A stretch of 50,755 nucleotides of DNA from a virus (taxonomy: Duplodnaviria > Heunggongvirae > Uroviricota > Caudoviricetes), in IMG/VR virus record IMGVR_UViG_2908959467_000003, positions 1 through 50,755 of that record; one strand, 5' to 3'. Numbering within the stretch: position 1 is the stretch's first letter; each line of letters starts with the position of its first letter. Both the position numbers and the translations under genes were made by a program. The notes under the pieces are model-generated. The model did no database searches and had not been told where the DNA came from. It saw nothing but the letters and a program-made list of their open reading frames with translations. Below, in pieces: positions 14,910-50,755 of the stretch.

Positions 14910-15431
14910 ATGAGCATGGAACTGAATGAATACTTCGAATACCGCGATGGTTCTTTGGTTTGGAAAGCCAGAAGCTCTGAGTTTTTCAACAACAAAAAGA
15001 ATCGCAACTATCACAACGTTTGGAATGCAAAACACGCTGGGAAAGTTGCTGGTCTTTTAGAAAGCAATGGATATATCCGCATAAGAATTAACGGCATTAA
15101 GTGGCTAGCACACCGCATCGTATGGGTAATGTTTAACGGAGATATTCCAGAAGGCATGGAAATTGACCATATAAATGGGATTCGCCACGACAACAGAATT
15201 GAAAATCTTCGTCTTGTGAAAAAATCAGCAAACCAAAGGAATAGAATCAAACTATCTAAAAATAACTCCAGCGGAATATCTGGAGTTTACTTTTGCAACA
15301 CGCGGAAAAGATGGATCGCTCATAAGCGACTGCTTAATGCAAGAGTGCAAAAAGTATGTTCTTCATTCGAAGAGGCGAAAGAAGTAATCAGAAAGTTTGA
15401 CGAGGAAAACAACATCACGATATCGAAATAA
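14910..15431 (+). CDS. HNH homing endonuclease with AP2-like DNA-binding domain (173 aa)
   Basis: EIDHINGIRHDNRIENLRLV HNH core; GISGVYF..RWIAHKR AP2-like; AT-rich; antisense to the late operon between scaffold and coat genes. Confidence 0.75.
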   Translation: MSMELNEYFEYRDGSLVWKARSSEFFNNKKNRNYHNVWNAKHAGKVAGLLESNGYIRIRINGIKWLAHRIVWVMFNGDIPEGMEIDHINGIRHDNRIENLRLVKKSANQRNRIKLSKNNSSGISGVYFCNTRKRWIAHKRLLNARVQKVCSSFEEAKEVIRKFDEENNITISK

Positions 15432-31361: not shown

Positions 31362-31419
31362 ATGTAAGTATTTCCTTAACAAATAAGAAGTTATGCGCAT
31401 CAACTTATGCGCGTTGTAT

Positions 31420-31463
31420 TCCCGCATTTCGGCGGGAATGAGGACCATGACTGTTAAAGAGCG
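31420..31463 (-). promoter_or_regulatory. nutR-like site (boxA CGCTCTTTAACA + boxB hairpin)
   Basis: Minus strand CGCTCTTTAACA then UCCCGCCGAAAUGCGGGA hairpin, between cro and cII. Confidence 0.6.
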
Positions 31464-31469
31464 GTGTTA

Positions 31470-31664
31470 CTATTTGTTTTTCTTGTTGCTTGGGAAAGGA
31501 CGAACTTCCTCTCCAATCACACTGCCATCAGGCTTTACCGTAACCATGATGTTACGGCCTGCCAGAATGGCCTTGCTGATAGCGCACTGGATTACACCAA
31601 AGTCACTGGCTGCTTTAGCCTGTCCATGGATTTTGGCGTAATCGGCAAGTGTCATTCGAATCAT
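31470..31664 (-). CDS. cro: Cro-like repressor (64 aa)
   Basis: ..[42 protein letters not shown] resembles lambda Cro; ATG 31664 with GGAGAG RBS. Confidence 0.75.
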
Positions 31665-31695
31665 ATGCACTCTCCGTTATTAACCATGAACAAAG

Positions 31696-31735
31696 AATAC
31701 TACAGGTATTCAAAGCAATCAATACTCAGGGTATT
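31696..31735. promoter_or_regulatory. OR operator sites: two 15-bp palindromes AATAC-N5-GTATT in the cro/cI divergent promoter region
   Basis: AATACTACAGGTATT (31696..31710) and AATACTCAGGGTATT (31721..31735), centres 25 bp apart. Confidence 0.55.
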
Positions 31736-31770
31736 TTTAGTTTAAGTACCTTAGCTATTAGAATTAAGCT

Positions 31771-32487
31771 ATGGAAAATAAAAAATCACTGACGACAGAA
31801 CAGCTGGAAGACGCTAAGCGGCTTAAGGCTTTGTATGAGTCAAAAAAGAAAGAATTGGGGATAACCCAATACTCAATCGCTGATGAACTGGGTATCACCC
31901 AAGGAGCGGTAGGGCATTATCTTAATGGCAGAAATGCGCTAAACGTTGAGGTTGCATCTGGTTTTGCACGATTGTTGCAAGTCTCAATTGCTGATTTTAG
32001 CCAGTCAATTGCTGCCAAGGTTGCAGAACAGGCAGAAAGCCTTAAGAGCGATGCCAACGTAAGGTATGCAGGGGAATACAGAGCAGGAAAGAGGTATCCG
32101 GTGTTAAGCAGTATCCAGGCTGGCTCGTGGTGTGAAGCATGCGAACCATACACCATTAAAGACATAGATGTTTGGCTTGAGTCTGACGCGCATATTCAAG
32201 GTAATGCGTTTTGGCTTAAAGTGGAAGGTGATTCAATGACGGCACCGGTTGGGTTAAGCATTCCAGAGGGAACATTCGTTCTTTTCGATACCGGAAGGGA
32301 GGCGATCAACGGCAGCTTGGTCATAGCAAAACTTTCTGACTCTAACGAAGCAACATTCAAGAAGCTGATAATCGACGGCGGGAATAAATACCTCAAGGGA
32401 CTTAACCCTGCATGGCCTCTCGTGCCAATCAATGGAAACTGCAAGATTATAGGCGTTGCAATTGAGACAAAACTAAGGCTGGTTTGA
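31771..32487 (+). CDS. cI: CI-type prophage repressor with S24 peptidase domain (238 aa)
   Basis: N-terminal HTH (ITQYSIADELGITQGAVGHYLNG), C-terminal autocleavage domain (..VEGDSM..KK..). Confidence 0.85.
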   Translation: MENKKSLTTEQLEDAKRLKALYESKKKELGITQYSIADELGITQGAVGHYLNGRNALNVEVASGFARLLQVSIADFSQSIAAKVAEQAESLKSDANVRYAGEYRAGKRYPVLSSIQAGSWCEACEPYTIKDIDVWLESDAHIQGNAFWLKVEGDSMTAPVGLSIPEGTFVLFDTGREAINGSLVIAKLSDSNEATFKKLIIDGGNKYLKGLNPAWPLVPINGNCKIIGVAIETKLRLV

Positions 32488-32506
32488 TCACGCAAGGGGG
32501 ACGCTT

Positions 32507-32875
32507 ATGGTTGGAACCGCTATAGCAAGCTTTTTTGGGATGTTGGCAATCTCAACAATTTACGGCTTAGCGCATGCTTTTATTACGAAATCTCTATCAG
32601 AAAAAATAAGCCAGGCTTGGACGCATAGATCGGCTCGTTTCATGATTCTAGTGGTCATAGCAATACAAGGGATATCTGCATTTATCCTCTATGGATCAAG
32701 CTTATACCTATTGTATCAAGGCGCGACATTTACGCCTTACACCAGTGATTACGGAACTCTATACGATGGTAGTGAAGACATCTCTATGGCTTGGATCGTC
32801 TTTGGTTTATCTATGGCCGTGTCTGTTGTAGCAGACATCATTAAGGTAATTCTCGTCTTAACCTTCGCTGACTAA
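32507..32875 (+). CDS. Small multi-pass membrane protein (122 aa) co-oriented downstream of cI
   Basis: About 4 hydrophobic segments; AAGGGGGA RBS; occupies the slot where lambda has rexAB. Confidence 0.5.
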   Translation: MVGTAIASFFGMLAISTIYGLAHAFITKSLSEKISQAWTHRSARFMILVVIAIQGISAFILYGSSLYLLYQGATFTPYTSDYGTLYDGSEDISMAWIVFGLSMAVSVVADIIKVILVLTFAD

Positions 32876-33006
32876 CCCATAATCCCGGCAGCAATAGCTA
32901 TCGGGATCCACTTCACATATCCCGCATAAAAATCACTGAACAAGCAGACACCGAAAAAATAAATATCCTTTGTATTCATTTGTTTATCATTATTTCATCA
33001 AAAATA

Positions 33007-33046
33007 AATACCTTGGGTATTTACACAATAAAATACCTACAGTATT
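33007..33046. promoter_or_regulatory. OL operator sites (same AATAC-N5-GTATT family)
   Basis: AATACCTTGGGTATT (33007..33021) and AATACCTACAGTATT (33032..33046), centres 25 bp apart; degenerate third copy at 32962..32976. Confidence 0.55.
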
Positions 33047-33094
33047 CTTTAGCCATCAGCAGGACGCTGGAAGCCAAACGGAACAGATTGGCAG

Positions 33095-33135
33095 GCTCTT
33101 TAACATTGATGGGATTGTCCCGCCGAAATGCGGGA
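33095..33135 (+). promoter_or_regulatory. nutL-like site (boxA GCTCTTTAACA + boxB hairpin)
   Basis: boxB TCCCGCCGAAATGCGGGA identical to nutR on the other strand. Confidence 0.6.
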
Positions 33136-33242
33136 ACCAAAGAGTAGTTGGCTTTGGGGTGACGTGAAGTGCAGATGCACGACGGCAACCGGAAGATAAG
33201 CACCCGGCGCGTCACCGCCAAAGTCAATCATCGGAGGTCAAC

Positions 33243-33542
33243 ATGACAGTAGTCATTACATATCTGGCTGACGATAACGCCAGAAATCGCCGCAGAGCAC
33301 GCAGACAGGCTCAACGTGAACAGGCAATGCAAGAGCAGCGACTGGCGCGAAAAATTGAGCTAAAGCTCTCTGGTTGCGTCAGAGCAGATAAAGCAGCATC
33401 ACTCGGAAGCCTTCGCTGCAAGAAGGCAGAAGAAGTCGAGCGTAAACAGAACCGTATTTACTACCGCAAGCCACGCAGTGAAATGGGTGTGACTTGTGTT
33501 GGTCGCCAGAAAATGAAATTAGGCAGCAAACCACTTATTTGA
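33243..33542 (+). CDS. N: N-like antiterminator (99 aa)
   Basis: Arginine-rich motif NARNRRRARRQAQ; C-terminus ..RIYYRKPRSEMGVTCVGRQKMKLGSKPLI parallels lambda N. Confidence 0.8.
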   Translation: MTVVITYLADDNARNRRRARRQAQREQAMQEQRLARKIELKLSGCVRADKAASLGSLRCKKAEEVERKQNRIYYRKPRSEMGVTCVGRQKMKLGSKPLI

Positions 33543-34380: not shown

Positions 34381-35349
34381 ATGAGTGAAGTAACAGATTT
34401 AGTTGTTATTGAAAAATCAAATGCAATGACTGTATTTCAGTCTGCCGACCAGATTGAAGAAATCCTTCAAAAGGTTGAACGTGAAGTTATGTCCTTTGTG
34501 CCTGATATCACCACGGCAAAGGGCAGAAAGGAGATCGCTTCTCTGGCGTATAAAGTTGCGCAGACGAAAACATATCTCGATGGTCTTGGCAAAGACCTTG
34601 TTGCTGAACTGAAGGAAATTCCAAAGCTAATTGATGCCAACCGCAAGACAGTGCGCGATCGCCTTGATGAACTGAAAGCCAAGGCGCGCCAGCCTCTTAC
34701 TGATTATGAGGAAGAACAGGCGCTGATTAAAGCCGAAGAAGAAGCTAAGGCAGCAGCTGAAGCTCTCGCAAAGCAAATTGAGTCTGACCATGAAATAGCG
34801 ATTTTGATGGATCGCGAATTTGACCGCCAAAGAGAAGAGGCAAGACTCAAAGCGGAGCAGGAAAAGCGAGAGCATGAAGAACGCTTAAAAAGAGAAGCTG
34901 AAGAGAAAGCCAGAGCAGAAGCCGAAGCAAAGGCAAAAGCCGAAATTGAAGCAGCAGCAAGGCGAGAAGCAGAAGCTAAGGCCGCAGCGGAACGTGCAGA
35001 GCGTGAACGCATTGAAGCCGAGCAACGAGCACAGCGCGAAGCAAAAGAGGCGGCGGAACGAGCTGAAAGAGAAAAGCATGCGGCAATTGAAGCAGAACGC
35101 AGAAAAGCACAGGAGGAGGCTGAACGAATCCGTCGCGAGGCTGAAGCAAAAGAGCAAGCCAGAATAGCAGAAGAAAAAAGAATCAAGGACGAAGAAGAGC
35201 GTAGAGCAAAAGATAAAGCTCACCGGAAAGAAGTAAATAACAAAATACTTGCTGACCTTATCAAGGTTGGTGCATCAGAAGATGTTGCTAAAAATATCAT
35301 AACAGCCATCGTAAAAGGCGAAGTATTCGCAACAAAAATAACCTACTAA
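34381..35349 (+). CDS. Charged coiled-coil protein (322 aa), unknown function
   Basis: ATG 34381 with GGAGGA RBS; central approximately 150 aa of A/E/K/R repeats; globular ends. Confidence 0.5.
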   Translation: MSEVTDLVVIEKSNAMTVFQSADQIEEILQKVEREVMSFVPDITTAKGRKEIASLAYKVAQTKTYLDGLGKDLVAELKEIPKLIDANRKTVRDRLDELKAKARQPLTDYEEEQALIKAEEEAKAAAEALAKQIESDHEIAILMDREFDRQREEARLKAEQEKREHEERLKREAEEKARAEAEAKAKAEIEAAARREAEAKAAAERAERERIEAEQRAQREAKEAAERAEREKHAAIEAERRKAQEEAERIRREAEAKEQARIAEEKRIKDEEERRAKDKAHRKEVNNKILADLIKVGASEDVAKNIITAIVKGEVFATKITY

Positions 35350-39931: not shown

Positions 39932-40132
39932 ATGCAACACGAACTACAACCTGATTCACTGGTTGATTTGAAATTCATCATGGCCGATACTGGCTTCGGT
40001 AAAACCTTCATCTATGACCGGATTAAGTCCGGCGACCTGCCTAAAGCCAAAGTTATCCACGGGCGAGCAAGATGGTTATATCGTGACCATTGTGAATTCA
40101 AAAATAAGCTCTTAAGCCGCGCCAATGGGTAA
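39932..40132 (+). CDS. torI: Excisionase / recombination directionality factor, TorI/AlpA-like (66 aa)
   Basis: 66-aa winged-helix-type protein (..IMADTGFGKTFIYDRIKSGDLPKAKV..RARWLYRD..) between the two argW-like segments. Confidence 0.65.
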   Translation: MQHELQPDSLVDLKFIMADTGFGKTFIYDRIKSGDLPKAKVIHGRARWLYRDHCEFKNKLLSRANG

Positions 40133-40380: not shown

Positions 40381-41556
40381 ATGCTGCTATCTGACATCCA
40401 AATAAAAAGAGCAAAACCGAAGGACAAACCCTATACGCTTAACGATGGTATGGGGCTATCACTCCTGATCGACACAGCGGGCAGTAAAGGCTGGCGTTTT
40501 CGCTATCGCTTTGCAGGTAAGCCTAAGATGATTTCCTTTGGCGTATATGGCGATGTGTCGTTGGCACAGGCACGTACCAAACGTGATGAAGCGCGTTCGA
40601 TGTTAGCCAAAGGGATAAACCCAAGTGAAGCCAGAAAAGCAGATAAGATTGCTTTGCAGTTCGCGCATGAGAACAGCTTTGAGTCTGTGGCCAGAGAATG
40701 GCACTCATCGAAAAAAGCCACCTGGTCAGAGGGTTATGCAAAAGAGGTTCTCAATTGTATGGAAAAGGATATTTTTCCTTTTATCGGCCAGCGCCCAATT
40801 GAGCAGATTGAACCATTAGAACTGCTAACCGTCCTGCAAAAAATAGAGAAAAGAGGTGCGCTAGAGCAAACCAGTAAGATCCGCCGCCGCTGTGGTGAAG
40901 TGCTTCGTTATGCTGTTGCCACTGGTAGAGCAAAGTATAATTTTGCACCCGATTTAGCTATCGCACTCAACAAACCTAAAACCCAACACTTCCCGTTCCT
41001 GACTGAAAGCGAGTTGCCCGAGTTCGTTAATGCTCTGGATAACTATCAGGGCAGTTTAGTTACCAAATACGCCACGCAGCTGTTGATGCTAACAGGCGTG
41101 CGAACAATTGAACTACGTGCAGCGGAATGGGCTGAGTTTGATTTAGATAATGCCTTATGGGAGATCCCCAAAGAACGGATGAAGAAACGCCGCCCCCATC
41201 TGGTTCCGTTATCAACTCAGGCGATCAATATCCTGAAAAAGCTGCAAGAAATAACAGGGAATTACAGCCTCGTTTTCCCTGGCCGAAATGACGTCAGGAA
41301 ACCAATGAGCGAAGCCAGCATCAACAAAGTGATAAAACTACTGGGTTATCACGGTCGGTTAACGGGTCACGGTTTCAGGCATACCATGAGCACCATCTTG
41401 CATGAGCATGGGTTTGAAAGTGCCTGGATTGAAATGCAGCTTGCGCATGTTGATAAGAACTCTATTCGAGGTACTTACAATCATGCGCAATATATTAAAG
41501 ATCGACAAGTAATGATGGAATGGTACGCTAGCTTATTAAATACGACCTGCTATTAA
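40381..41556 (+). CDS. Tyrosine integrase, P4 family (391 aa)
   Basis: MLLSDIQIKRAKPKDKPYTLNDGMGL.., ..RRRCGEVLRYAVATGRAKYNFAPDLA.., ..HGFRHTMST..; paralogous to the int at 1..1158. Confidence 0.85.
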   Translation: MLLSDIQIKRAKPKDKPYTLNDGMGLSLLIDTAGSKGWRFRYRFAGKPKMISFGVYGDVSLAQARTKRDEARSMLAKGINPSEARKADKIALQFAHENSFESVAREWHSSKKATWSEGYAKEVLNCMEKDIFPFIGQRPIEQIEPLELLTVLQKIEKRGALEQTSKIRRRCGEVLRYAVATGRAKYNFAPDLAIALNKPKTQHFPFLTESELPEFVNALDNYQGSLVTKYATQLLMLTGVRTIELRAAEWAEFDLDNALWEIPKERMKKRRPHLVPLSTQAINILKKLQEITGNYSLVFPGRNDVRKPMSEASINKVIKLLGYHGRLTGHGFRHTMSTILHEHGFESAWIEMQLAHVDKNSIRGTYNHAQYIKDRQVMMEWYASLLNTTCY

Positions 41557-42486
41557 ATCCAGCATGAAACAAATATGGTGAGTAATTTGATACTGTTTGT
41601 TTTTTGGCAACCCAGGGAAATGCCTTACAGTTGGTTGACTATTGTAATAATAATAGTTAAGACCAATGTTGCTGCCAAACTGGGTTGGATGTTGGGGAAC
41701 AAGATTTGTAATTTGATCTGAAACATCTAAAAATTTTGCAGTAACATTTGAACTTCCTCGTTGCGTGTTGCTTGATACAAAATGACGAATCCAAACTGTA
41801 TTCGCTTGTAAATTCTTGAACACCAAATGTGCGGCAACAGCAGAAGGTTGACCACCTCCAAGATCTAGTACCTGGCCAGTAATTGTATAATCGCCAAATC
41901 CTAAGTAATTTTGTCCCACGAATTGATGTGCGTGCGTGAAAAGTTCCGGCCCATTATAATCAGCATTTTTTGCTAACTTTCTAAAGTTATCGCTAATAAT
42001 AATTAACTTCGACAAAGGAAGAAGAGCGCACTGATTAGGAAGCATTTTATTATTTAAAACAACATGATAACTAATCAATTGATTTGTCGCCAACAACTGA
42101 ATATCAGAGTTGGATAATGATGGATTATCATATAGAAGTGCAACTCGTCTATTTAAGTTAGCATTCAACCAATTATTAATATCATTAATCGTTGTATTGG
42201 GCTGAATAAGATATCCAGAGATGATATTGTTTTTATTTGTTAATACACTTGATAAATTTTGATTTAAAGTTAAGACGTTATTGTGTGAAGAAAAATCTTC
42301 CTGATAAGGATTAAGGATAACAATTATGTCAGAATTCCAAACATTTAAACATGTTAATAAATTTCTCGTATTGACGTTAATTGGTTCTAAAATTGGTAGC
42401 AGACCATTTAGGCTAACTCCCTTCGCAACGAGGTCCCTAAGGCATAATAACTCTGTACTTCTCGCATACAAATATGGGCTATACAT
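41536..42486 (-). CDS. Cargo protein B (316 aa), unknown function; second gene of an AT-rich two-gene operon
   Basis: N/S/L-rich low-GC ORF, 21 nt after gene A; no recognised motif; 3' end overlaps the convergent int by 21 bp. Confidence 0.6.
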   Translation of the reverse strand: MYSPYLYARSTELLCLRDLVAKGVSLNGLLPILEPINVNTRNLLTCLNVWNSDIIVILNPYQEDFSSHNNVLTLNQNLSSVLTNKNNIISGYLIQPNTTINDINNWLNANLNRRVALLYDNPSLSNSDIQLLATNQLISYHVVLNNKMLPNQCALLPLSKLIIISDNFRKLAKNADYNGPELFTHAHQFVGQNYLGFGDYTITGQVLDLGGGQPSAVAAHLVFKNLQANTVWIRHFVSSNTQRGSSNVTAKFLDVSDQITNLVPQHPTQFGSNIGLNYYYYNSQPTVRHFPGLPKNKQYQITHHICFMLDLIAGRI

Positions 42487-42507
42487 AACTTACAACTCCT
42501 GAGGATA

Positions 42508-43389
42508 TCAACAAATTTTAATTTTTACATCCATCAAATTCATGATGAATTCTTTTTGCTTTCTTGATAATGGTGTTGCATAACCTAAAACACGTAAACA
42601 TGCTGGAAGAGAATAAATATAATCCAAAAAAACTTTGTCGTTACATCTTTTTTTCATAGCAGAGATAAAGTATTTATTTGCTATGTTTAATGGCATCTGC
42701 ATGAATATCTCTTTACAATATTCATAAACCAATCCATTAGGCATATTTATTTTAGTTGAAGTGTAATCTTCTATTATAGCTAAGAACTCTTCCTTTCTAA
42801 GAACTGAAAACAAGCTGTCACTTTTAATATAATCAATATTTGAATCTGCCTCCTTAATGACACTCAATTGATCTTTTTTATTCAAAACCATAACTCCCAC
42901 TCTGGGGAGATTTAAAGCACAATATTTACTTGCATACTCTGGATGTGTAACTATATACACTTTATCAAAAACATCCAAATAATCAGGGGCTTGAGTAATC
43001 AACCTTTTTGGTGAATCATACTCTGTCTTAATCTCGTAAGCTGTAGACGTACCATTAAACACCGCAACATCCACTATAGAGTTTTTAATTGGTAACTCTA
43101 TGGACGACGAACTTGTTTTTGGGCTGTGCTTACCGAATATTATTTTATTGACAAGTGCTGTCTTATAAACATATTCATTTCTATAATTCAGACGCAAAAA
43201 ATCATATAATGATGTAAATAAATCCCTTAGTGAAATCTCATGTTCATTATTATCATTGTTTGAAAACAGTGTTTCATAGCAGTAAGAATCAAAACTCCCA
43301 AATAAATCCGAAATATCCTTACCTTTTGCTAAGGATGAAAAAATGGGGCGACGGAAAAATTTAGCATATTCCTTTTTATTATGACTCAT
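42508..43389 (-). CDS. Cargo protein A (293 aa), putative PD-(D/E)xK nuclease-fold protein
   Basis: ..SIELPIKNSIVDVAVFNGTSTAYEIKTEYD.. gives the E / hydrophobic-D / E-x-K arrangement; AT-rich. Confidence 0.6.
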   Translation of the reverse strand: MSHNKKEYAKFFRRPIFSSLAKGKDISDLFGSFDSYCYETLFSNNDNNEHEISLRDLFTSLYDFLRLNYRNEYVYKTALVNKIIFGKHSPKTSSSSIELPIKNSIVDVAVFNGTSTAYEIKTEYDSPKRLITQAPDYLDVFDKVYIVTHPEYASKYCALNLPRVGVMVLNKKDQLSVIKEADSNIDYIKSDSLFSVLRKEEFLAIIEDYTSTKINMPNGLVYEYCKEIFMQMPLNIANKYFISAMKKRCNDKVFLDYIYSLPACLRVLGYATPLSRKQKEFIMNLMDVKIKIC

Positions 43390-44069
43390 TACTCATACTC
43401 TATAAACATCATGCAATTTGATAAGTTATGACGAATTCTCACCATCCAGTTACTACCTGTACATACTAATCAAAAAAAACGAGTACGCAAGATACGAAAG
43501 TACTTTTCTTGTTCACCAGTTAGCTTACCTTGATCCTCACCAGCGACTGGAAGATAGGTAGCAGTATATGTGGAAACCTTCCCCTAGCTAGGTCTACAAA
43601 CGTAGTTTGGGCATTTAGGCTCCACGATTCACGGTTTGACACGGCCTGATATCTGCACATTCGTTTTGATATGCAGCAATCGTGAAAAAGGGAAAATATA
43701 CGCTCGACAGACCAAAACGGCACTACACCGCACCCGCCTGCGGTTTTCATATCACTAAAAATTTTCAGCCTGGATTTTTTACAAACGATACCGCCAGTCC
43801 GTGCCAGTCCTCGAGATGTACTGCGATACAGGAACTGAAAAGAATGAAAAGAAATTCATTTTTTTTCAGTTTTACTGTCCGTCGAATCTATGGCCTGAAT
43901 ACGCAACTCTATGATATTAAATGGATAATTAATTTTAGGTGTGTGATTTTATGAAGGTTTGTGAAACATGAAGAAGATAACCAGTTGAAAAATAATAATT
44001 TTATGACCGTATAAACTGAAATCCTGTGTTCAGGTTCCGGGAACAGATCGGCCATTCCCGACGCATACT

Positions 44070-44342
44070 TTACCCATTCTTTTGCGCAGCCAGCAGCAAC
44101 TTTAAAGCCTTTTCCCGTTCCTCGGGTGGAATTGCATCAATCAGCTCTTTAACCCTTCCCTGCCCGTTCAGCGCGCTTGGACTAACGGAATGGGAGAAAG
44201 CAACATTCATCACAAACGAGTGACCGCACTCCACATTAGAGCAATAGCAGTACACATCGTACAGTTGTGGGTGTTTCCTGTTTGTTTTACCTATCCGTGC
44301 TACTGCCTGACATGTGGGGCAGTACATTCTCATCATCTTCAT
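44070..44342 (-). CDS. ogr: Ogr/Delta-family zinc-finger late-gene activator (90 aa; start may be an internal Met)
   Basis: C-x2-C...C-x4-C pattern (MYCPTCQ..CYCSNVEC) as in P2 Ogr / P4 Delta. Confidence 0.7.
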   Translation of the reverse strand: MKMMRMYCPTCQAVARIGKTNRKHPQLYDVYCYCSNVECGHSFVMNVAFSHSVSPSALNGQGRVKELIDAIPPEEREKALKLLLAAQKNG

Positions 44343-44408
44343 CGTTCTGTGCCCTATACTGTTGCCCGCCAGAAGAAGGGATTTGGATCCCTACCTCTTG
44401 TTCTGAAC

Positions 44409-44598
44409 GTGTAACACTGGTAACACGTGTAACGCTATTGATTTAAAAGGATTTAATCTGTTACCAGTTAGCAAAATCAAGAGGTAACGCGTGGTAACAC
44501 ACCATTTTTTGTTACCTCTGTTACCAGTCAGTATTTTTGACTGGTAACACTGAAGAACCGCATCAGTAACGGGTGTTACCTCTGTTACCAGTGTTACC
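44409..44598. repeat. Iteron cluster: at least 12 copies of (G)GTAACAC / GTGTTACC in about 190 bp, P4 crr/ori-like
   Basis: Repeats read directly; motif TGTTACC is one base from the recalled P4 alpha-binding octamer TGTTCACC. Confidence 0.65.
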
Positions 44599-44624
44599 TC
44601 ATAAAAATAAGACTCACGCGATAA

Positions 44625-47312
44625 TCACTCAGGTTCAGCGCTTCCCAGTACCTGTGTATTGAACTGGTACACACGTTTAAGCCCTATTTCTGGCAGGCGA
44701 ATGCTGTTTTGCGTCCGGCCATCTTCACCGGGTTTCAGCCAGCCCGCGTCCACACACAACCTGGCCACCTTACGCGAGTCAAATCCCTTACAGATCTCCT
44801 TCCAGCCTGACGGGAGAACGTAGAACGTCACAACCGGCTCTGTCACGTTGTCTCCTTTATCGACTTTTCTGAATCCCATCATTGAAACAGGCCGGTTCCT
44901 GTCGTCATTCCAGTCAGCAAACCGACTGAACTGATTACGCGTCATGAAGTCCCGAACCTGTTCAAGTGCCGCTTTATCTTCCTGATTAGCTGTATGGCCC
45001 CGGTCAGCCATCCATGCAGCCAGACAGCTTTGAGCGGCACGAAAGGCCTCTCCCTCCGGCCATCCTGTGATGCCCGCTTTTGTGGCCAGCTCCCCGGCCA
45101 TCGCAACCAGAGCAAAACGGGTAACAGCCCGGCCAACCTGATTCCCGGCATTTTCCGGCGTCAGCCTTCGGGTATACTCTTTCAATAAGGCTTTCGCCTG
45201 ACTGGTCAGTTCCGGCAGATCAGCGGTCAGGCAATACAGCCAGTCGCGGAATGGTGCACCATGATAATGCGCTACGTGCTGCTCAAGATGCTCAGCCAGG
45301 GTTTTCCCGCTACTGAAGCCATGAAGTTCTTCAAACACGCCATACTTGCCCGAATCGCTTGGGATCTGGATCATTCTGACCTCAACCCCGGCATACGTAC
45401 GTTCCCCGGCGCTTGCCGCATGCTCTACCAGTGACAGTTCCCCGGTAGACAGAAACAACAGATTCCAGCGGTTGGTTTCCCTTACCGAACCATCTGTTCT
45501 GGCTCTGGCTTTGCCCTGCCCGTTAGCCAGCATATAAGCGATATTCCCCGCCTCCCTGCCGTCAACCTCCCGGATTTCATCCAGCATCAGCGTGGCATCA
45601 TTGCGGCGGCTCGCCGTTCCTTCTAAGGCATTCCCCGTCGCCCGCCACGTATGCCAGAAATCTGTTCCACCACATACTGATGCAGCCACTTTCATCGTCG
45701 TGGTTTTACCGTCTGTGGATTCCCCTTTGAGGTGATAACCTCCACCGCCGATACCAACCAGTTTCAGAAGGGGGGCAGCAAATGCCAGACTCACCGCAAA
45801 GGCAAGACGGGCATTCTTTATGCAATAACGGCCTATATTTTCACGCCAGCCCTCTGATGTGCCGCTGACACGAAAATCACGCCCCTGCACACTCGATGTT
45901 TGTAAGATGACTGACTGGGCTTCGCGCCCTATCACTTCATCCTGGAGAACGTAAACCCCGCCGTGCCAGCCAGTTTTATTCACACAGGTTACTTTTCTGT
46001 CCGGTTTACACAGCGAGATATATTCCATCAGGAATGCTCTGGCCATGCCATTAATGTTGATGTAAGAAAGCCCGTTAACCAGCAGAACGCGGCGCAGTTC
46101 TTCCCCGCTACCGCCCAGCATCTCCATCGGCATTGCCCATTTACGGCTGTTTCCGTTGGTATCTTCCCATTCCAGCAAACGCCCGTAATTACTTCCATCA
46201 GCATCACTGGTGATTGCCGTCACCCGCAACGGACTGCAAATTTTGATATTACGTATCTCTGTATCACCATCAGACTTATTAACCAGCTTGTCGTACCACA
46301 AATATTCTTTTGTCAGCCGGAACCCTTCTGGTAAACGGGTCTGCCCTTTGCCATGCAGCGTCATTTCTTCACGAAAGGCATCTCTCGCCCGTTCTTTCCC
46401 CACTTCCTGCCGATAATCATCCCAGTCAGCCTTATGGCGTACCGGAGGGAGCGTTACCCAGCCATCCACCGCTTTGGCGGCTTTCTCTGCCTGAATACGC
46501 CCGGTGTTTTCTTTGCCGTCAGCCAGATCATTATCTCCGGCCAGAATGATCCGAGTTTCCGGCCAGCGTTTTCGGATCTGCTCCGTCACCTTCAGTAAAT
46601 TGGTGGCAGCGACAGCCGCCACGATCCATCCTTCAGTCAGCAGACTGACGGTAAGCGCCGTGGCAAAACCCTCAGTGATAATCACCTGTTCAGGTGTTTC
46701 AGCGGGTATATCGGTCAGGGCAATGAATGCGCCAGACAGCTGGCTACCGGGCAGCAGACTTTTATCCCCGTCAGGATTGATAAGCTGGCCACCAGTAATA
46801 TTCCCGGAAATATCCGTCAAAGGCAGCAGTAATGAACCGGTGGAAAATGTTATTCCGGCCAGATTCAAAGGCTGTGACAGCAAGGGAAGTGAATACCCGT
46901 GTAAGCCCTTATTTGTCAGATAGACCGGCTCACCATTGCAGGACTGCTGTCTGAGTCTGGTATATCGCTCCGCGCCCGCTTCTTTTCCTGCGGCCTTTTT
47001 CCTGGCTGGCAATGCGGGCTTCTCCTGTATTTCTGGTAATGCAAGCGCCTCAGATACCATCCCGGCGACTTCTTTTATCTTTCTTCCTGTCACCAGACGA
47101 ACCAGATCAAGACCATCGCCATGACCGCACTGATTACAAAACCACGTCCCTCGCCCCGCTTTATCGTCCAGTCGAAAACGATCTTTTCCACCACAGGCAG
47201 GGCAAGCCCCATGATGTCCTGCGGACGGTACTTTAATACCTAATGCTGACAGGATATAAGGCCAGCGCCCAATTGCAGCTCCGGAAATCGTGGATACAGA
47301 CGGTGTTTTCAC
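44625..47312 (-). CDS. Primase-helicase, P4 alpha-type (895 aa)
   Basis: N-terminal zinc-binding primase motif (CPACGGKDRFRLDD..WFCNQCGHGDG), central P-loop (GESTDGKTTT). Confidence 0.85.
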   Translation of the reverse strand: MKTPSVSTISGAAIGRWPYILSALGIKVPSAGHHGACPACGGKDRFRLDDKAGRGTWFCNQCGHGDGLDLVRLVTGRKIKEVAGMVSEALALPEIQEKPALPARKKAAGKEAGAERYTRLRQQSCNGEPVYLTNKGLHGYSLPLLSQPLNLAGITFSTGSLLLPLTDISGNITGGQLINPDGDKSLLPGSQLSGAFIALTDIPAETPEQVIITEGFATALTVSLLTEGWIVAAVAATNLLKVTEQIRKRWPETRIILAGDNDLADGKENTGRIQAEKAAKAVDGWVTLPPVRHKADWDDYRQEVGKERARDAFREEMTLHGKGQTRLPEGFRLTKEYLWYDKLVNKSDGDTEIRNIKICSPLRVTAITSDADGSNYGRLLEWEDTNGNSRKWAMPMEMLGGSGEELRRVLLVNGLSYININGMARAFLMEYISLCKPDRKVTCVNKTGWHGGVYVLQDEVIGREAQSVILQTSSVQGRDFRVSGTSEGWRENIGRYCIKNARLAFAVSLAFAAPLLKLVGIGGGGYHLKGESTDGKTTTMKVAASVCGGTDFWHTWRATGNALEGTASRRNDATLMLDEIREVDGREAGNIAYMLANGQGKARARTDGSVRETNRWNLLFLSTGELSLVEHAASAGERTYAGVEVRMIQIPSDSGKYGVFEELHGFSSGKTLAEHLEQHVAHYHGAPFRDWLYCLTADLPELTSQAKALLKEYTRRLTPENAGNQVGRAVTRFALVAMAGELATKAGITGWPEGEAFRAAQSCLAAWMADRGHTANQEDKAALEQVRDFMTRNQFSRFADWNDDRNRPVSMMGFRKVDKGDNVTEPVVTFYVLPSGWKEICKGFDSRKVARLCVDAGWLKPGEDGRTQNSIRLPEIGLKRVYQFNTQVLGSAEPE

Positions 47313-47719
47313 AGCAGCACCTCCTGACCTTCCGGCTTCACAAATTCAAAACCTTCGGGTAGTTCGCCATCAGGTGCTCCGAAAATAATATCCCGGTAAA
47401 CCTCACGCATCTCTGTGACACCAAAAACTGACAGGCGAATATTTTCTGACATAAAGCCTGGTTTAAGCATTTTTTCCAGTTTCTCTGCGGCCAGTATGCA
47501 ACCAGCATCAGCCCCAAACTCATTCACCCACGGCATTTCAATATGGTAAATAATATTACTCACCACTTTTTCGTGGGAGAGTTCTATTCGTTCGCCATCT
47601 TCAATATAAACAGGTTCATTATGAACACGCACCATTAAGGAAATGAATGCATCAGCAATGTAGTAGCGTAAGACTGCTGTTCGTAAAGCATGCGCCTTTA
47701 AATTTTGATTATTATTCAT
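47309..47719 (-). CDS. Hypothetical protein (136 aa) upstream of the primase
   Basis: Overlaps primase start; position analogous to P4 epsilon/orf151. Confidence 0.45.
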   Translation of the reverse strand: MNNNQNLKAHALRTAVLRYYIADAFISLMVRVHNEPVYIEDGERIELSHEKVVSNIIYHIEMPWVNEFGADAGCILAAEKLEKMLKPGFMSENIRLSVFGVTEMREVYRDIIFGAPDGELPEGFEFVKPEGQEVLL

Positions 47720-47948
47720 CGCGCATCACTCCCTTAATTGTGCTGGTTTCCTTAACAACGCCATCCAGTTGTTCGGCAATACAGGCCACTAAAGCCGCAG
47801 CGCCTTCCGCTGAAACAGTTCTCGCTCCATTCACTGTGGGCACGGACAAGACCTCTGCAAGAAACTCACTGGCCAGTGCCGCCCGTAACAGACGACTCTC
47901 CCCCTGTTCACTCAATATGCAGCCTTGCTTAAAATTCATGGATTTCAT
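47712..47948 (-). CDS. Hypothetical protein (78 aa)
   Basis: Operon member; no motif. Confidence 0.4.
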   Translation of the reverse strand: MKSMNFKQGCILSEQGESRLLRAALASEFLAEVLSVPTVNGARTVSAEGAAALVACIAEQLDGVVKETSTIKGVMRDE

Positions 47949-48148
47949 GCAACCACCTCCCCGGCTCTTTTCACAGGGATACGGGCAGCAAAGCTCAGGA
48001 TAAATTCAGTGGCAAGTTTAAGGCGTGCAGCATGCTCGCATTCTGCGATTACACGCACAGGGCGTGGACGGGCATCACGGTCTGTACGGCGGACAGCCAG
48101 AAAGACAAAGGTAAATTCAGGGTGAGATAAAGCAGGGACTGTAGCCAT
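47945..48148 (-). CDS. Small hypothetical protein (67 aa), first gene of the alpha operon
   Basis: ATG at 48148 with GAAGGAGG RBS; the longer track ORF to 48535 is an unsupported extension. Confidence 0.4.
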   Translation of the reverse strand: MATVPALSHPEFTFVFLAVRRTDRDARPRPVRVIAECEHAARLKLATEFILSFAARIPVKRAGEVVA

Positions 48149-48160
48149 AATGGCAACCTC

Positions 48161-48425
48161 CTTCAGATAGCGGGTAACGCTACCACCGGAGTTCCTACGC
48201 TCATGGGTGGTAGCCCAGACGGGGGTAGGAATACCGGCTCTGAAGGATACCGGCCAGCCCGAAAGCTGCCCCGCCTGGACTACCATAATTCTGATGATGT
48301 GGCGTAAAAAATAAAAAAATACAATCAGCCACCACACCATAAATTTTAGGTGAGTCAAAGCTGCGACACAAAAAAACACGCCTGGCGCGTGTAGTATCGC
48401 CTTCAGATAACACGGGTTCCTACGC
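48161..48425 (-). promoter_or_regulatory. Candidate RNA immunity region (P4 seqA/cI/seqC-like) with internal terminator
   Basis: Two direct copies of CTTCAGATA..GTTCCTACGC (48401..48425, 48161..48200) flank a reverse-complement copy (48225..48247); hairpin + U7 at 48370..48392. Confidence 0.4.
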
Positions 48426-48577
48426 CCGGCTGCCGATTTTGCGGCAACCTTTAAACTATATCCCGCGCATTCCTGGTGAGGCAAGAAATTTATAACCGAA
48501 AACTGATCATTGCCTGGATTAATTAACGCTGGCATGCTTAAGCCTCTGCTTAAAAATAGTTCTTCATTTTTCCTGAT

Positions 48578-48608
48578 GCTGTAAACGAGACCCGCCTCTG
48601 AGCGGGTC
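48578..48608 (-). terminator. Hairpin terminator after capsid-like gene
   Basis: Minus-strand GACCCGC-UCAGAG-GCGGGUC followed by UCGUUUAC. Confidence 0.45.
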
Positions 48609-48622
48609 TTTCTGTCGCTAAG

Positions 48623-49627
48623 TCAATCCGCAAACGTCAGGGCGCTCTCATCGACAGCCGCGTACAGTTCAGGTTCACCGAGTGCATAACCTTCATTGCG
48701 CAGGTAGGAATGCACGTATTCACTGCTTTCATCATCAAACTCAGCACGAAACCAGCGTGTTATCGCCTGAGTGTAAATATGCAGATTATCCAGCGTCGTT
48801 ACTGCCAGACGCTTACCCGGCATAAACGGGGGAATAAACGCAAAGCGGCCAGCAACAGAACTTGTAGCCATCTGTGCCGCATTCACATCAGACGGGCGGT
48901 CTGCGGCATTAAATAACTTCAGGCGTTGATGTGCTGCCAGCTCTGCCCCAACCAGTACAACCAGACGAGGATCTTCACGAAACTGCTCAGCAATAAGCTC
49001 TGTAATCAGATGGTTGGCCAGAGCATCAATATTTTTCCAGGTGCCAGTCTCTCCCAGAGTGACAGGCTCAGAGATGATTTGCTTTCCGTTCCCGTAGGCT
49101 TTCGCCAGTGCATGCCAGCCAATATTGACATCCTCGCCTTTTTTATTGATTTCCGGGTTTGTAGTATTTGCAATCGACACACCATTGAAACCGACCCGCA
49201 GCATGTCCAGCGCATATGCCTGGGCAAAAAAGCTCTCAACCGTTTTCTCAAACTCATCCGGCACGCCGGTATGGTAAATATGAGACATATCGGAATAGCT
49301 GATCCGGGCGCAGGTATCCGTCTCTGTCAGAAAGAACTCCGTACCATTGATTGCCATTTTTTTGTGGAAACGGCCACCATCCACACGTCCGGTATACAGT
49401 TCACTGGCACCAATATTGACGGCATTACCTGACACGGCGTTAACATCACGTAGGGTAATATTTTTAATAAGCCACCCGGATTCCAGAATTGAGGTACGCA
49501 GTATATTTTCAGTAGGTTCGCTTAATGCAAAGCGTCTGTTTGATTCTTCCTGATAGTTAGTGCCAGTGACGAATTTATTATGATAACGACGTGCTGCGTC
49601 CGGCCTTTCAGTTTTGAAGGCATACAT
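48623..49627 (-). CDS. P2 gpN-family major capsid-like protein (334 aa)
   Basis: Blocks alignable to recalled P2 gpN (GFNGV, ..IGW.., DALANHLITELIAEQFREDPRLVVLVG, LDNLHIY); from memory, unverified. Confidence 0.5.
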   Translation of the reverse strand: MYAFKTERPDAARRYHNKFVTGTNYQEESNRRFALSEPTENILRTSILESGWLIKNITLRDVNAVSGNAVNIGASELYTGRVDGGRFHKKMAINGTEFFLTETDTCARISYSDMSHIYHTGVPDEFEKTVESFFAQAYALDMLRVGFNGVSIANTTNPEINKKGEDVNIGWHALAKAYGNGKQIISEPVTLGETGTWKNIDALANHLITELIAEQFREDPRLVVLVGAELAAHQRLKLFNAADRPSDVNAAQMATSSVAGRFAFIPPFMPGKRLAVTTLDNLHIYTQAITRWFRAEFDDESSEYVHSYLRNEGYALGEPELYAAVDESALTFAD

Positions 49628-49649
49628 AGTTTTTCACCTTTTTAAGTAT

Positions 49650-50510
49650 TTAAGAAAAGATTTTATTTTTGTACTCAGTAACCAGATTGTATTTCATTAC
49701 ATGCTCAACATAATCCCGGTCACTTACGACTGAACGTAATACATAATTATCTGCTCGATAGTACTCCCTGTAAGCCATAGCTCTTGCCATTCCACCGTTA
49801 TTTAATACATAACGATCAGTTGGAACGCTACAACGACTAATAATTTCACTCACGGAATCAGATAAAGACTTGAGTGCATCAGTAATAAATTTAATATCAC
49901 GGACAACGTCACTGTCATTAAATACAGAAATAAAATCAGCAGGGATCTGGCCGGATTGAGGAAATATATTCAGTAAACGCTTATCGATTCCCTTCCCAAT
50001 GTAGTTTCCTTCATCGGCCAGTACTCCCGGCAAAAGCTTGATCGTGCTCAATCGACTATGTTGTTCATTCAACCGGGAAACAGCCAGATGGTAATACCGT
50101 TCAGCATCCGCTCGTTCAGCATGCCCCATTTTATTCGTTTTGGCTTCAGCAATGCTACTGACGCCGTTTTTTGAGAATGTGCTTTTCCATGCAACTTCCG
50201 CATTTGTCACTTCACGCTGCCGGAAAGATAACTCTTCCTCTTCCTGACGACACAACTGGGCATAACGGCTCAGGAGCAGGTTGATCTCATTCGCCACAGT
50301 TTCCGTATCAGGTACTGTTAACCCCGTAAGTGAATACAGCTTTTCACCTTTAGCTCGCAGCTTATTCAGTGAATATATTTCAATAATACGCACAATACAG
50401 GCCGTGTCGCTATGAGTCTCTTTAAATGATCTTACTTTGTAACTATCTAACACCGACACATGTTCGTTCTTAATTGATGCCAATTTCTTCTTAAAAACAT
50501 TGTCAACCAT
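49650..50510 (-). CDS. Hypothetical protein (286 aa), AT-rich, unknown function
   Basis: Low-GC ORF between AlpA and the capsid-like gene; no recognised motif. Confidence 0.5.
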   Translation of the reverse strand: MVDNVFKKKLASIKNEHVSVLDSYKVRSFKETHSDTACIVRIIEIYSLNKLRAKGEKLYSLTGLTVPDTETVANEINLLLSRYAQLCRQEEEELSFRQREVTNAEVAWKSTFSKNGVSSIAEAKTNKMGHAERADAERYYHLAVSRLNEQHSRLSTIKLLPGVLADEGNYIGKGIDKRLLNIFPQSGQIPADFISVFNDSDVVRDIKFITDALKSLSDSVSEIISRCSVPTDRYVLNNGGMARAMAYREYYRADNYVLRSVVSDRDYVEHVMKYNLVTEYKNKIFS

Positions 50511-50527
50511 ATATTTGCCACCTCAAT

Positions 50528-50755
50528 TTAGGAGTTTAATTTTCTATTGAGAATATTCTTCTCTATCCATTCATTAACTTCATGCTCCACCCATGCAACA
50601 GAACGAGAACCGATAGAAACTTGGTTCGGAAATTCATCATTCTTTATCTTTAGATAAATTGTTGACTTGGGTAAGCCAGTCAAATTAATCACTTCTGATA
50701 TTCTCAGAAGTCTATATCTTTTTTGGGGTGCGTTTTCCCGAGGCAATAAGCTCAT
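50528..50755 (-). CDS. alpA: AlpA-family transcriptional regulator (75 aa)
   Basis: ..RLLRISEVINLTGLPKSTIYLKIKNDEFPNQVSIGSRSVAWVEHEVNEWI matches the AlpA HTH signature; start codon is the last 3 nt of the window. Confidence 0.75.
   Translation of the reverse strand: MSLLPRENAPQKRYRLLRISEVINLTGLPKSTIYLKIKNDEFPNQVSIGSRSVAWVEHEVNEWIEKNILNRKLNS

Follow-up and report, generated by a model that had tools for sequence, protein, structure and literature searches.

Some temperate phages carry accessory genes that are translated from the repressor transcript in lysogens, for example hex of phage 434 and stk of phage 933W (PMC3564112). Among the accessory genes transcribed with the repressor gene from PRM (the promoter for repressor maintenance), rexAB of lambda and stk, which encodes a tyrosine kinase, are exclusion factors, and Hex, also named 'repressor protection protein', stabilises the lysogen by preventing the RecA-stimulated cleavage of the repressor (PMC3564112). 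The lambda rexB gene is the last of the PRM-cI operon and lies just before the terminator and the leftward operator (OL); it encodes a small polytopic inner-membrane protein of 144 amino acids (aa) with four transmembrane segments, which has a sensor partner, RexA, and a second promoter, PLIT. RexA and RexB also tune the lysis-lysogeny switch, RexB antagonising RexA, and two-hybrid binding of RexB to CI has been proposed to involve the central cytoplasmic loop of RexB (bioRxiv 10.1101/2021.04.19.439022). Phage P22 has SieA, a lone protein of the inner membrane that is expressed from the prophage, is predicted to have three transmembrane segments and blocks the delivery of DNA (PMC10883804). 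Here, we describe hkaS (positions 32507..32875, + strand), a gene found directly behind the cI repressor gene in a stretch of 50,755 nucleotides (hereafter the window) from a virus of the class Caudoviricetes (IMG/VR record IMGVR_UViG_2908959467_000003). We consider it near certain that hkaS is the last gene of a prophage immunity operon, PRM-cI-hkaS, and that its product is a three-helix inner-membrane protein. What HkaS does in the lysogen is a matter of graded likelihood, and we tentatively favour a role in superinfection exclusion.

By its sequence, the window is a P22-like (HK620-like) prophage of Escherichia coli. Its cI and hkaS genes are identical to those of a chromosomal prophage of E. 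coli E62, with annotated gene coordinates that agree throughout, and the RefSeq product name of the E62 copy is 'hypothetical protein'. The repressor gene cI (31771..32487, +; 238 aa, with HTH_3 and Peptidase_S24 domains) is the first gene of the immunity (PRM) operon and ends with a stop codon at 32485-32487. A sequence-only reading of this DNA had placed a 122-aa open reading frame (ORF) with a strong ribosome-binding site (RBS) just downstream of cI, and both the coordinates and the start signal were found to be correct: the ORF begins with ATG on the same strand as cI after a gap of 19 nt, and the Shine-Dalgarno site AAGGGGGA (32494..32501, +), as read directly from the sequence, lies 5 nt 5' of this ATG. 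An AGGA-type site stands at the same distance from the hkaS ATG in every lineage. The translated protein matches phrog_6534 (PHROG 6534, no function) over positions 1-122 of 122 (E=6.2e-78). The GC content of hkaS is 0.415, compared with 0.456 for cI and 0.472 for the prophage. The fixed length of the ORF in the family, a ratio of non-synonymous to synonymous substitution rates (dN/dS) of 0.14, the lack of any interruption in 115 alleles and a structure model with a mean predicted local distance difference test score (pLDDT) of 92.9, all presented below, establish that hkaS is a real gene.

The surroundings of hkaS were delimited with an operator-like pattern, ARTAYNNNNNBTATT, which was derived from the operators and scanned over the 50.7-kb window. 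Six matches were obtained for a chance expectation of 1.0, three of them between cro and cI and three at OL. The first three (31696-31710, 31721-31735 and 31745-31759) coincide with OR1-OR3 of HK620 and define the rightward operator (OR) region at 31696..31759, which by analogy would contain the rightward promoter PR and PRM. The other three (32962-32976, 33007-33021 and 33032-33046), together with a promoter-like site at 33020-33048 resembling the leftward promoter PL, form the OL/PL region (32962..33048, +), in agreement with the HK620 annotation. As had been proposed, hkaS stops before OL/PL, where the 15-mers start at 32962, 33007 and 33032; 86 nt separate the end of the gene from the first of them. 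Consensus scans detected neither a promoter-like nor a terminator-like site in the gap between cI and hkaS, and no internal promoter-like site for hkaS in this position; the PL-like site was the sole promoter-like one across 31400-33300. Exactly one ORF, hkaS, lies between cI and OL, and a gene for a RexA-like sensor is absent there.

A stem-loop at 32882..32907 (+), 7 nt past the hkaS stop codon, folds with -13.7 kcal/mol (z = -3.1) and has no U-run in this allele. It is probably the 3' end or the terminator of the cI-hkaS transcript. In all four lineages that were folded, a stable stem-loop (-13.7 to -18.5 kcal/mol) was found 9-22 nt past the stop codon; among the three other lineages, one of these structures resembles that of the window in sequence and two are unrelated (-16 to -18.5 kcal/mol). 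By analogy with tIMM of lambda, such stem-loops would fit a transcript end that shields PL and the N gene from read-through started at PRM. The tIMM feature of the HK620 GenBank record corresponds to window positions 32957-32987, a stretch with no stable fold (-1.6 kcal/mol, z +0.65). This feature probably marks an operator rather than a terminator, namely the 15-mer at 32962-32976, which would be the true OL3, 45 bp from OL2, and the hairpin at 32882-32907 is more likely than the annotated tIMM to be the true 3' hairpin of the immunity transcript. The operon logic put forward from the sequence, which assigned hkaS to the position of lambda rexAB, is therefore borne out by its orientation, the short gap, the lack of intervening promoter or terminator and the hairpin that follows. 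In the lysogen, hkaS would be transcribed with cI from PRM, as operon anatomy suggests, and translated from its own Shine-Dalgarno site, and the transcript would terminate at the hairpin 32882-32907, before OL/PL. Also, a hydrophobic ORF of 35 aa on the opposite strand (32872-32979, -; MNTKDIYFFGVCLFSDFYAGYVKWIPIAIAAGIMG) was considered as a possible small toxin and rejected, as it is missing in L003 and L004, the two most divergent of the cI-hkaS loci examined, and as its span includes both the hairpin and an operator-like site; it is probably a chance ORF.

The protein had been described as having about four hydrophobic helices, and on this point the description has to be corrected to three. 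Kyte-Doolittle analysis gave hydrophobic peaks at residues 3-27, 45-70 and 94-121, and the AlphaFold2 model (mean pLDDT 92.9, predicted template modelling score 0.78) showed long helices at 2-29, 41-73 and 89-121; in addition, it has a short helix (31-37) and a small beta-hairpin (78-86). The loop 28-44 is basic and the loop 71-93 acidic, a charge distribution that obeys the positive-inside rule. The predicted topology has the N-terminus out and the C-terminus in, with the loop 28-44 cytoplasmic and the loop 71-93 periplasmic, and an inner-membrane location is inferred. An alignment of 28 cluster representatives, which go down to 51% identity to the window protein and all measure 121-122 aa, contains 22 invariant columns. 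Three invariant polar or charged residues, Q54, D110 and K113, lie inside the bilayer, the last two in the third transmembrane helix (TM3), where F99, D110, K113 and V117 share one face; the C-terminus is the conserved VLTFAD. The most conserved parts are the cytoplasmic loop KIxQAWxHRxARF (residues 30-44; mean entropy 0.81) and the half of TM3 towards the cytoplasm together with the C-terminus (D110, K113, VLTFAD; 0.64). Variability is highest in the half of the first transmembrane helix close to the cytoplasm (1.72), followed by the periplasmic loop (1.48) and by the half of TM3 on the periplasmic side (1.42).

Searches linked HkaS to its own family and to no characterised protein. The absence of similarity to RexB, noticed earlier by eye, was confirmed by hhalign (probability 1.1%), and values were lower still for P22 SieA (0.5%), P22 SieB (0.3%) and 434 Hex (0.05%). 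Homology to a housekeeping membrane protein would have spoken against the exclusion role suggested by the sequence-only reading; an exhaustive profile search of 1.84 billion representative proteins returned the family itself only. The extra matches in this search were one fragment and one repetitive protein of 314 aa (E=3e-4), which was judged spurious. Pfam, NCBIfam and PADLOC scans of HkaS gave nothing significant and no known defence model, and Pfam scans of the 28 members gave no holin family match; sub-threshold matches to Cation_ATPase_C (3 of 28 members) and to TssN were judged to be hydrophobic noise. A sequence search of the PDB gave no match at E<=1, and fold searches gave no viral match and, in the PDB, only generic helical bundles.

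The likeness of hkaS to rexB is thus one of anatomy: the same place at the end of the PRM-cI operon, before the terminator and OL, and a small polytopic inner-membrane product. HkaS shows no sequence similarity to RexB and differs from it in having three helices and in lacking both a partner gene and an internal promoter-like site. SieA, with its three predicted transmembrane segments and its autonomy in the prophage membrane (PMC10883804), is the closest architectural analogue; for HkaS, three helices are predicted, and no conserved partner gene was found across the loci compared. Nevertheless, SieA is longer (162-164 aa), its gene adjoins those of the ejection proteins and has its own promoter, and no homology to HkaS is detectable. 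Hex and Stk share with HkaS the expected translation from the repressor transcript (PMC3564112), but Stk is a kinase, and Hex, with 134 aa, has a signal-peptide-like N-terminus, shows no predicted segment that spans the membrane and acts on the RecA-mediated cleavage of the repressor.

The gene itself was already catalogued. HK620 carries the same gene (AAK28867 / NP_112052; 95% aa identity), likewise between cI and OL and with cro, cI, OL and N around it as in the window, and its product is 'unknown' in the GenBank record of 2001. The two proteins differ in a few amino acids, the window protein having, for example, T27, T39 and V50. The window cI is 99.6% identical to that of HK620, ten further phage records contain exactly this cI (100%), and the DNA of the immunity region is 98-99% identical to that of HK620, HK630, HK140, mEpX2, HF4s, HZ41 and some Shiga toxin (Stx) phages. 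The hkaS gene was also found in HK630, HK140, mEpX2, HF4s, HZ41, phi296, phi367 and two Stx2c phages; the 16 phage records with hkaS are precisely those whose cI is at least 99% identical. Among 5426 complete E. coli genomes, 146 (~2.7%) contain hkaS, including O145:H28 and Stx2c prophages, always on the chromosome, and the plasmid collection gave no match. Profile searches extended the family to Salmonella, Hafnia, Klebsiella aerogenes, Citrobacter, Cronobacter, Enterobacter, Lelliottia, Leclercia and Buttiauxella besides Escherichia, all of them Enterobacterales; every named entry is labelled 'hypothetical protein' and all contexts examined are prophages. As the carriers include podoviruses, siphoviruses and Stx phages, the gene is not tied to one virion type.

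In E. coli, hkaS and this type of cI occur in equal numbers (146 genomes, 147 places each), which raised the idea of an obligatory coupling between the two. In the position behind cI (the cI slot), hkaS follows 17-20 nt after the repressor gene in 117 of 117 related loci with a readable upstream gene, and the C-terminal domain of the cI upstream is 83-100% identical to that of the window. This layout is also found in prophages of Salmonella, Citrobacter (including C. koseri), Cronobacter and Klebsiella aerogenes. The identity of N among the loci that share cI and hkaS ranges from 17% to 66%, and the co-inherited block is therefore cro-cI-hkaS. The N gene of the window (33243..33542, +; phrog_271, E=5e-37), the first of the PL operon, stands at the far edge of the immunity module and is itself a mosaic: over the first ~64 residues it is almost identical to the HK620 protein, its C-terminal third differs and the overall identity is 66%, so that a recombination junction lies within N, at the edge of the module.

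Three observations separate hkaS from its repressor. Firstly, the closest cI outside the family, that of Serratia phage OS31 (71% identity), is followed by no ORF of at least 60 aa or with a hydrophobic segment; P22 also has nothing between c2 and OL. Secondly, in Buttiauxella (L015 2333-2980; L133) the cI combines an unrelated helix-turn-helix domain (17% identity), which is paired with a different Cro, with a C-terminal domain of the HK620 type (86%), followed by hkaS. This cI is a natural domain swap with its junction between the DNA-binding and cleavage domains. Thirdly, homologues occur in a second place, which we call the late slot, in three loci (L130 2250-2869 and L132 29-494, both metagenomic; L145 1-419), 21 nt after a phage tRNA-Thr(TGT). 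The tRNA cluster consists of Met-CAT, 'Phe' and Thr-TGT; in L130 it lies downstream of the Q antiterminator gene and Thr is the last of the three. The L130 and L132 proteins are 59% and 57% identical to the window protein and 95% to each other, the late-slot copies as a whole being 83-95% identical, and the L130 protein also occurs in Enterobacter, Lelliottia and Leclercia genomes. In L130 and L132 the copy is followed by a 72-aa ORF and by genes for a P21-type holin and a phage lysozyme. The tRNA-Thr junction recurs in L145, as does the 3' tail of 215 nt that ends in an intrinsic terminator, and there the copy precedes another lysis cassette, with holin_8, holin_3_7 and a GH19 endolysin. As a side observation, L130 also holds an integrase fragment and a host-like tRNA-Arg nearby, and its copy may belong to a decayed prophage.

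The two slots are connected by a protein 93% identical to the L130 copy, which follows cI in three further phages. When one of these cI-slot copies (L142) was compared with L130, L132 and L145, homology was limited to ~20 nt with the RBS and the coding sequence, and the flanks were unrelated; a hairpin or a terminator follows hkaS in both slots. Because near-identical copies occupy two slots and the gene is absent behind the related cI of OS31, we conclude with high confidence, from these sequence comparisons, that hkaS is a mobile cargo gene ('moron') of lambdoid and P22-like Enterobacterales prophages and not an intrinsic partner of cI. The idea of an obligatory coupling is weakened by the copies in the tRNA-lysis slot and by the Buttiauxella cI with its swapped domain. 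The interval between Q and the lysis genes is the site of stx in Stx phages, and houses porin genes in other lambdoid phages. The Enterobacter-type hkaS copies resemble morons of that interval, such as stxAB behind phage tRNAs, in following tRNAs and having their own intrinsic terminator; they differ in encoding a membrane protein instead of a toxin.

These data bear on the possibility that HkaS modulates the life cycle of its own phage, through repressor stability, the induction threshold or, in an antiholin-like manner, the timing of lysis, and leaves other phages alone. There are precedents in the same slot, since 434 Hex prevents RecA-stimulated repressor cleavage (PMC3564112) and RexB shows two-hybrid binding to CI and antagonises RexA (bioRxiv 10.1101/2021.04.19.439022). 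Moreover, the Buttiauxella hkaS has stayed with the C-terminal domain of cI, responsible for cleavage and oligomerisation, despite the replacement of the DNA-binding domain and Cro, and three loci have hkaS just upstream of two different holin cassettes. However, plain adjacency explains the linkage to the C-terminal domain, and a copy 93% identical to one in the cI slot lies far from any cI, downstream of tRNAs. Hex is unrelated and not predicted to span the membrane, and the holin types next to the late-slot copies are mutually unrelated, which argues against a specific antiholin pairing. We regard this explanation as quite unlikely.

An abortive-infection or holin-like effector, similar to RexB or AbiZ, would sit idle in the membrane and collapse its potential upon a phage trigger, killing or arresting the cell before progeny is made. 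With 122 aa, a predicted N-out/C-in topology and three helices, HkaS resembles class I holins such as S105 of lambda. It occupies the slot of rexB, and a small polytopic protein with Q54, D110 and K113 in the bilayer is compatible with an oligomeric pore. Nevertheless, HkaS lacks the charged C-terminal tail of class I holins, ending in TM3 with ...VLTFAD, and matches no holin family. No RexA-like sensor or other partner accompanies it, cI being the only linked gene and this link being broken in the late slot, where the gene would probably be strongly expressed in the lytic cycle of its own phage, which is awkward for a suicide protein. An effector of this kind is, in our opinion, unlikely.

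The evolutionary tempo of hkaS is distinct from that of cI. Between the E. coli type and the P0005 type, named by NCBI from Hafnia paralvei, a distance that is not saturated, dN/dS is 0.14 for hkaS and 0.03 for cI, a value that points to purifying selection on hkaS; in each pair of lineages compared, hkaS has a dN 4-6 times as high as cI. Within E. coli, the segregating sites are 31 non-synonymous and 22 synonymous in hkaS, compared with 8 and 44 in cI (Fisher p = 6e-6), and there are 31 protein variants of HkaS compared with 9 of cI. Such figures could suggest that hkaS has no current function and is a hitch-hiking ORF kept by its tight linkage to the immunity module. Constraint within E. coli indeed looks relaxed, both in these counts and in pairwise dN/dS values of 0.3-0.6 among near-identical alleles, which rely on small counts, and a few database entries have frameshifted N-termini. 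However, the length is kept at 121-122 aa across genera with 22 invariant columns, dN/dS falls to 0.14 at larger distance, and the 115 E. coli-type alleles, which come from viral and metagenomic contigs, are all free of internal stops. Also, a second slot received a precise copy of the RBS and the coding sequence, which was then kept. A functionless ORF is therefore very improbable.

The absence of hkaS behind the OS31 cI, its retention in Buttiauxella with a different cI DNA-binding domain and the late-slot copies argue for a function that is autonomous. The reading that we tentatively favour is that HkaS, acting alone in the cytoplasmic membrane, may protect the lysogen from heteroimmune superinfecting phages, the argument being purely one of position and analogy. 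Most likely, it would obstruct the passage of the incoming genome or of the ejection apparatus across the inner membrane. The same logic of a block at the inner membrane is known for P22 SieA, T4 Imm and HK97 gp15. The cytoplasmic loop KIxQAWxHRxARF and the polar stripe of TM3 with the C-terminus (D110, K113, VLTFAD) may be the working or assembly surface, and the variable periplasmic loop may set the range of targets. A suicide response of the Rex type, with sensor and channel, is less likely than such an entry block, because no sensor partner travels with hkaS and because expression in the late operon would be hazardous for a suicide effector. The faster evolution of HkaS than of cI, with the periplasmic side varying most, and the precedents of rexAB and stk on the PRM transcript also count in favour of exclusion. 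This prophage has no annotated SieA beside its ejection-protein genes and no reverse-strand gene beside N, which is the place of hkaP, a putative exclusion gene of HK620.

Several points weigh against exclusion. No experimental phenotype is reported for any member of the family, and our literature search found no paper on hkaS. HkaS matches no PADLOC defence model and is related to no known exclusion protein in sequence or fold. Its most conserved surface is cytoplasmic, which is naively unexpected for a protein that should meet incoming phage proteins from the periplasm, and its fast, mostly conservative substitutions could just reflect a low constraint on transmembrane segments. The late slot, directly upstream of holin genes, could hint at a role related to lysis, and other occupants of the cI slot, namely 434 Hex and in part RexA and RexB, affect the lysis-lysogeny switch rather than invaders. 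The suggestion of the sequence-only reading that this gene is an exclusion factor is thus reasonable but unproven, while its description of the gene was sound apart from the number of helices; overall it was confirmed in part.

Another possibility is a lysogenic-conversion factor, which would raise the fitness of the lysogen, irrespective of other phages, by modulating a host membrane protein (a transporter, a sensor kinase or a protease) or the tolerance to envelope stress. Lom and Bor of lambda and the small regulators MgrB and AcrZ are models for such a modulation of host physiology. HkaS is encoded by a slot-independent cargo gene present in gut and environmental Enterobacterales, its best-conserved surfaces face the cytoplasm or the inner leaflet, as expected for a conserved host partner, and one of its slots is the one known for stx and porin genes. 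On the other hand, no homologue was found outside prophages, the protein bears no likeness to characterised small membrane regulators, and a protein fitted to a conserved host partner would not usually diverge so rapidly in amino-acid sequence. We consider conversion somewhat unlikely.

Returning to exclusion, it is possible, if doubtful, that HkaS is the founder of a new class of single-protein prophage defence, unrelated to Rex, Sie, Imm and Cor and exchanged between the repressor operon and a slot of the stx type. In such a class, the cytoplasmic face and the intramembrane Asp/Lys pair may mediate the entry block or a membrane response triggered by phage, and the fast-evolving periplasmic loop may provide specificity. 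The identity of the gene, its class of topology and its status as a moron are, for their part, held with high confidence. Our analysis adds to the catalogued gene the delimitation of its family, the exclusion of a relationship with Rex, Sie and Hex, and the mobility into a second slot. Few prophage genes are on in every lysogen; those translated together with the repressor belong to them and so influence the range of phages able to attack a strain. Yet hkaS has been labelled 'unknown' for 25 years despite its presence in a model phage, HK620. It is a cheap and well-posed target, being one small gene that has both near and remote alleles, a confident structure model and two natural contexts. 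If defence is confirmed, HkaS would be a new exclusion protein acting at the level of the membrane; if not, the slot behind cI would be no reliable defence slot.

Other features of the window were noted along the prophage. Between N and cIII, the early-left operon contains a gene (34381-35349, +) for a low-complexity protein of 322 aa with Glu, Ala, Lys and Arg repeats, annotated as 'TolA', for which PADLOC gave no match. The P22-type major capsid and scaffolding genes are separated by an inserted HNH homing-endonuclease gene (14916-15431, +) in the opposite orientation, and ARAGORN found no tRNA gene in the window. A P4-like satellite (40381-50755) with an integrase, ogr/delta, a DUF927 primase and an Icd-like gene adjoins the P22-like prophage; it holds a two-gene insert, sce7725/sce7726 (41536-43389), in the place where such satellites carry defence cargo, and the sce7726 protein matches the PADLOC model PDLC02989 'cll' (1e-18). 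Finally, an intS-like integrase gene (1-1158) lies at one end of the prophage, beside genes for an O-antigen acyltransferase and the tailspike, and a TorI-like excisionase gene (39932-40132) at the other, a split int/xis arrangement as in KplE1, HK620 and Sf6.

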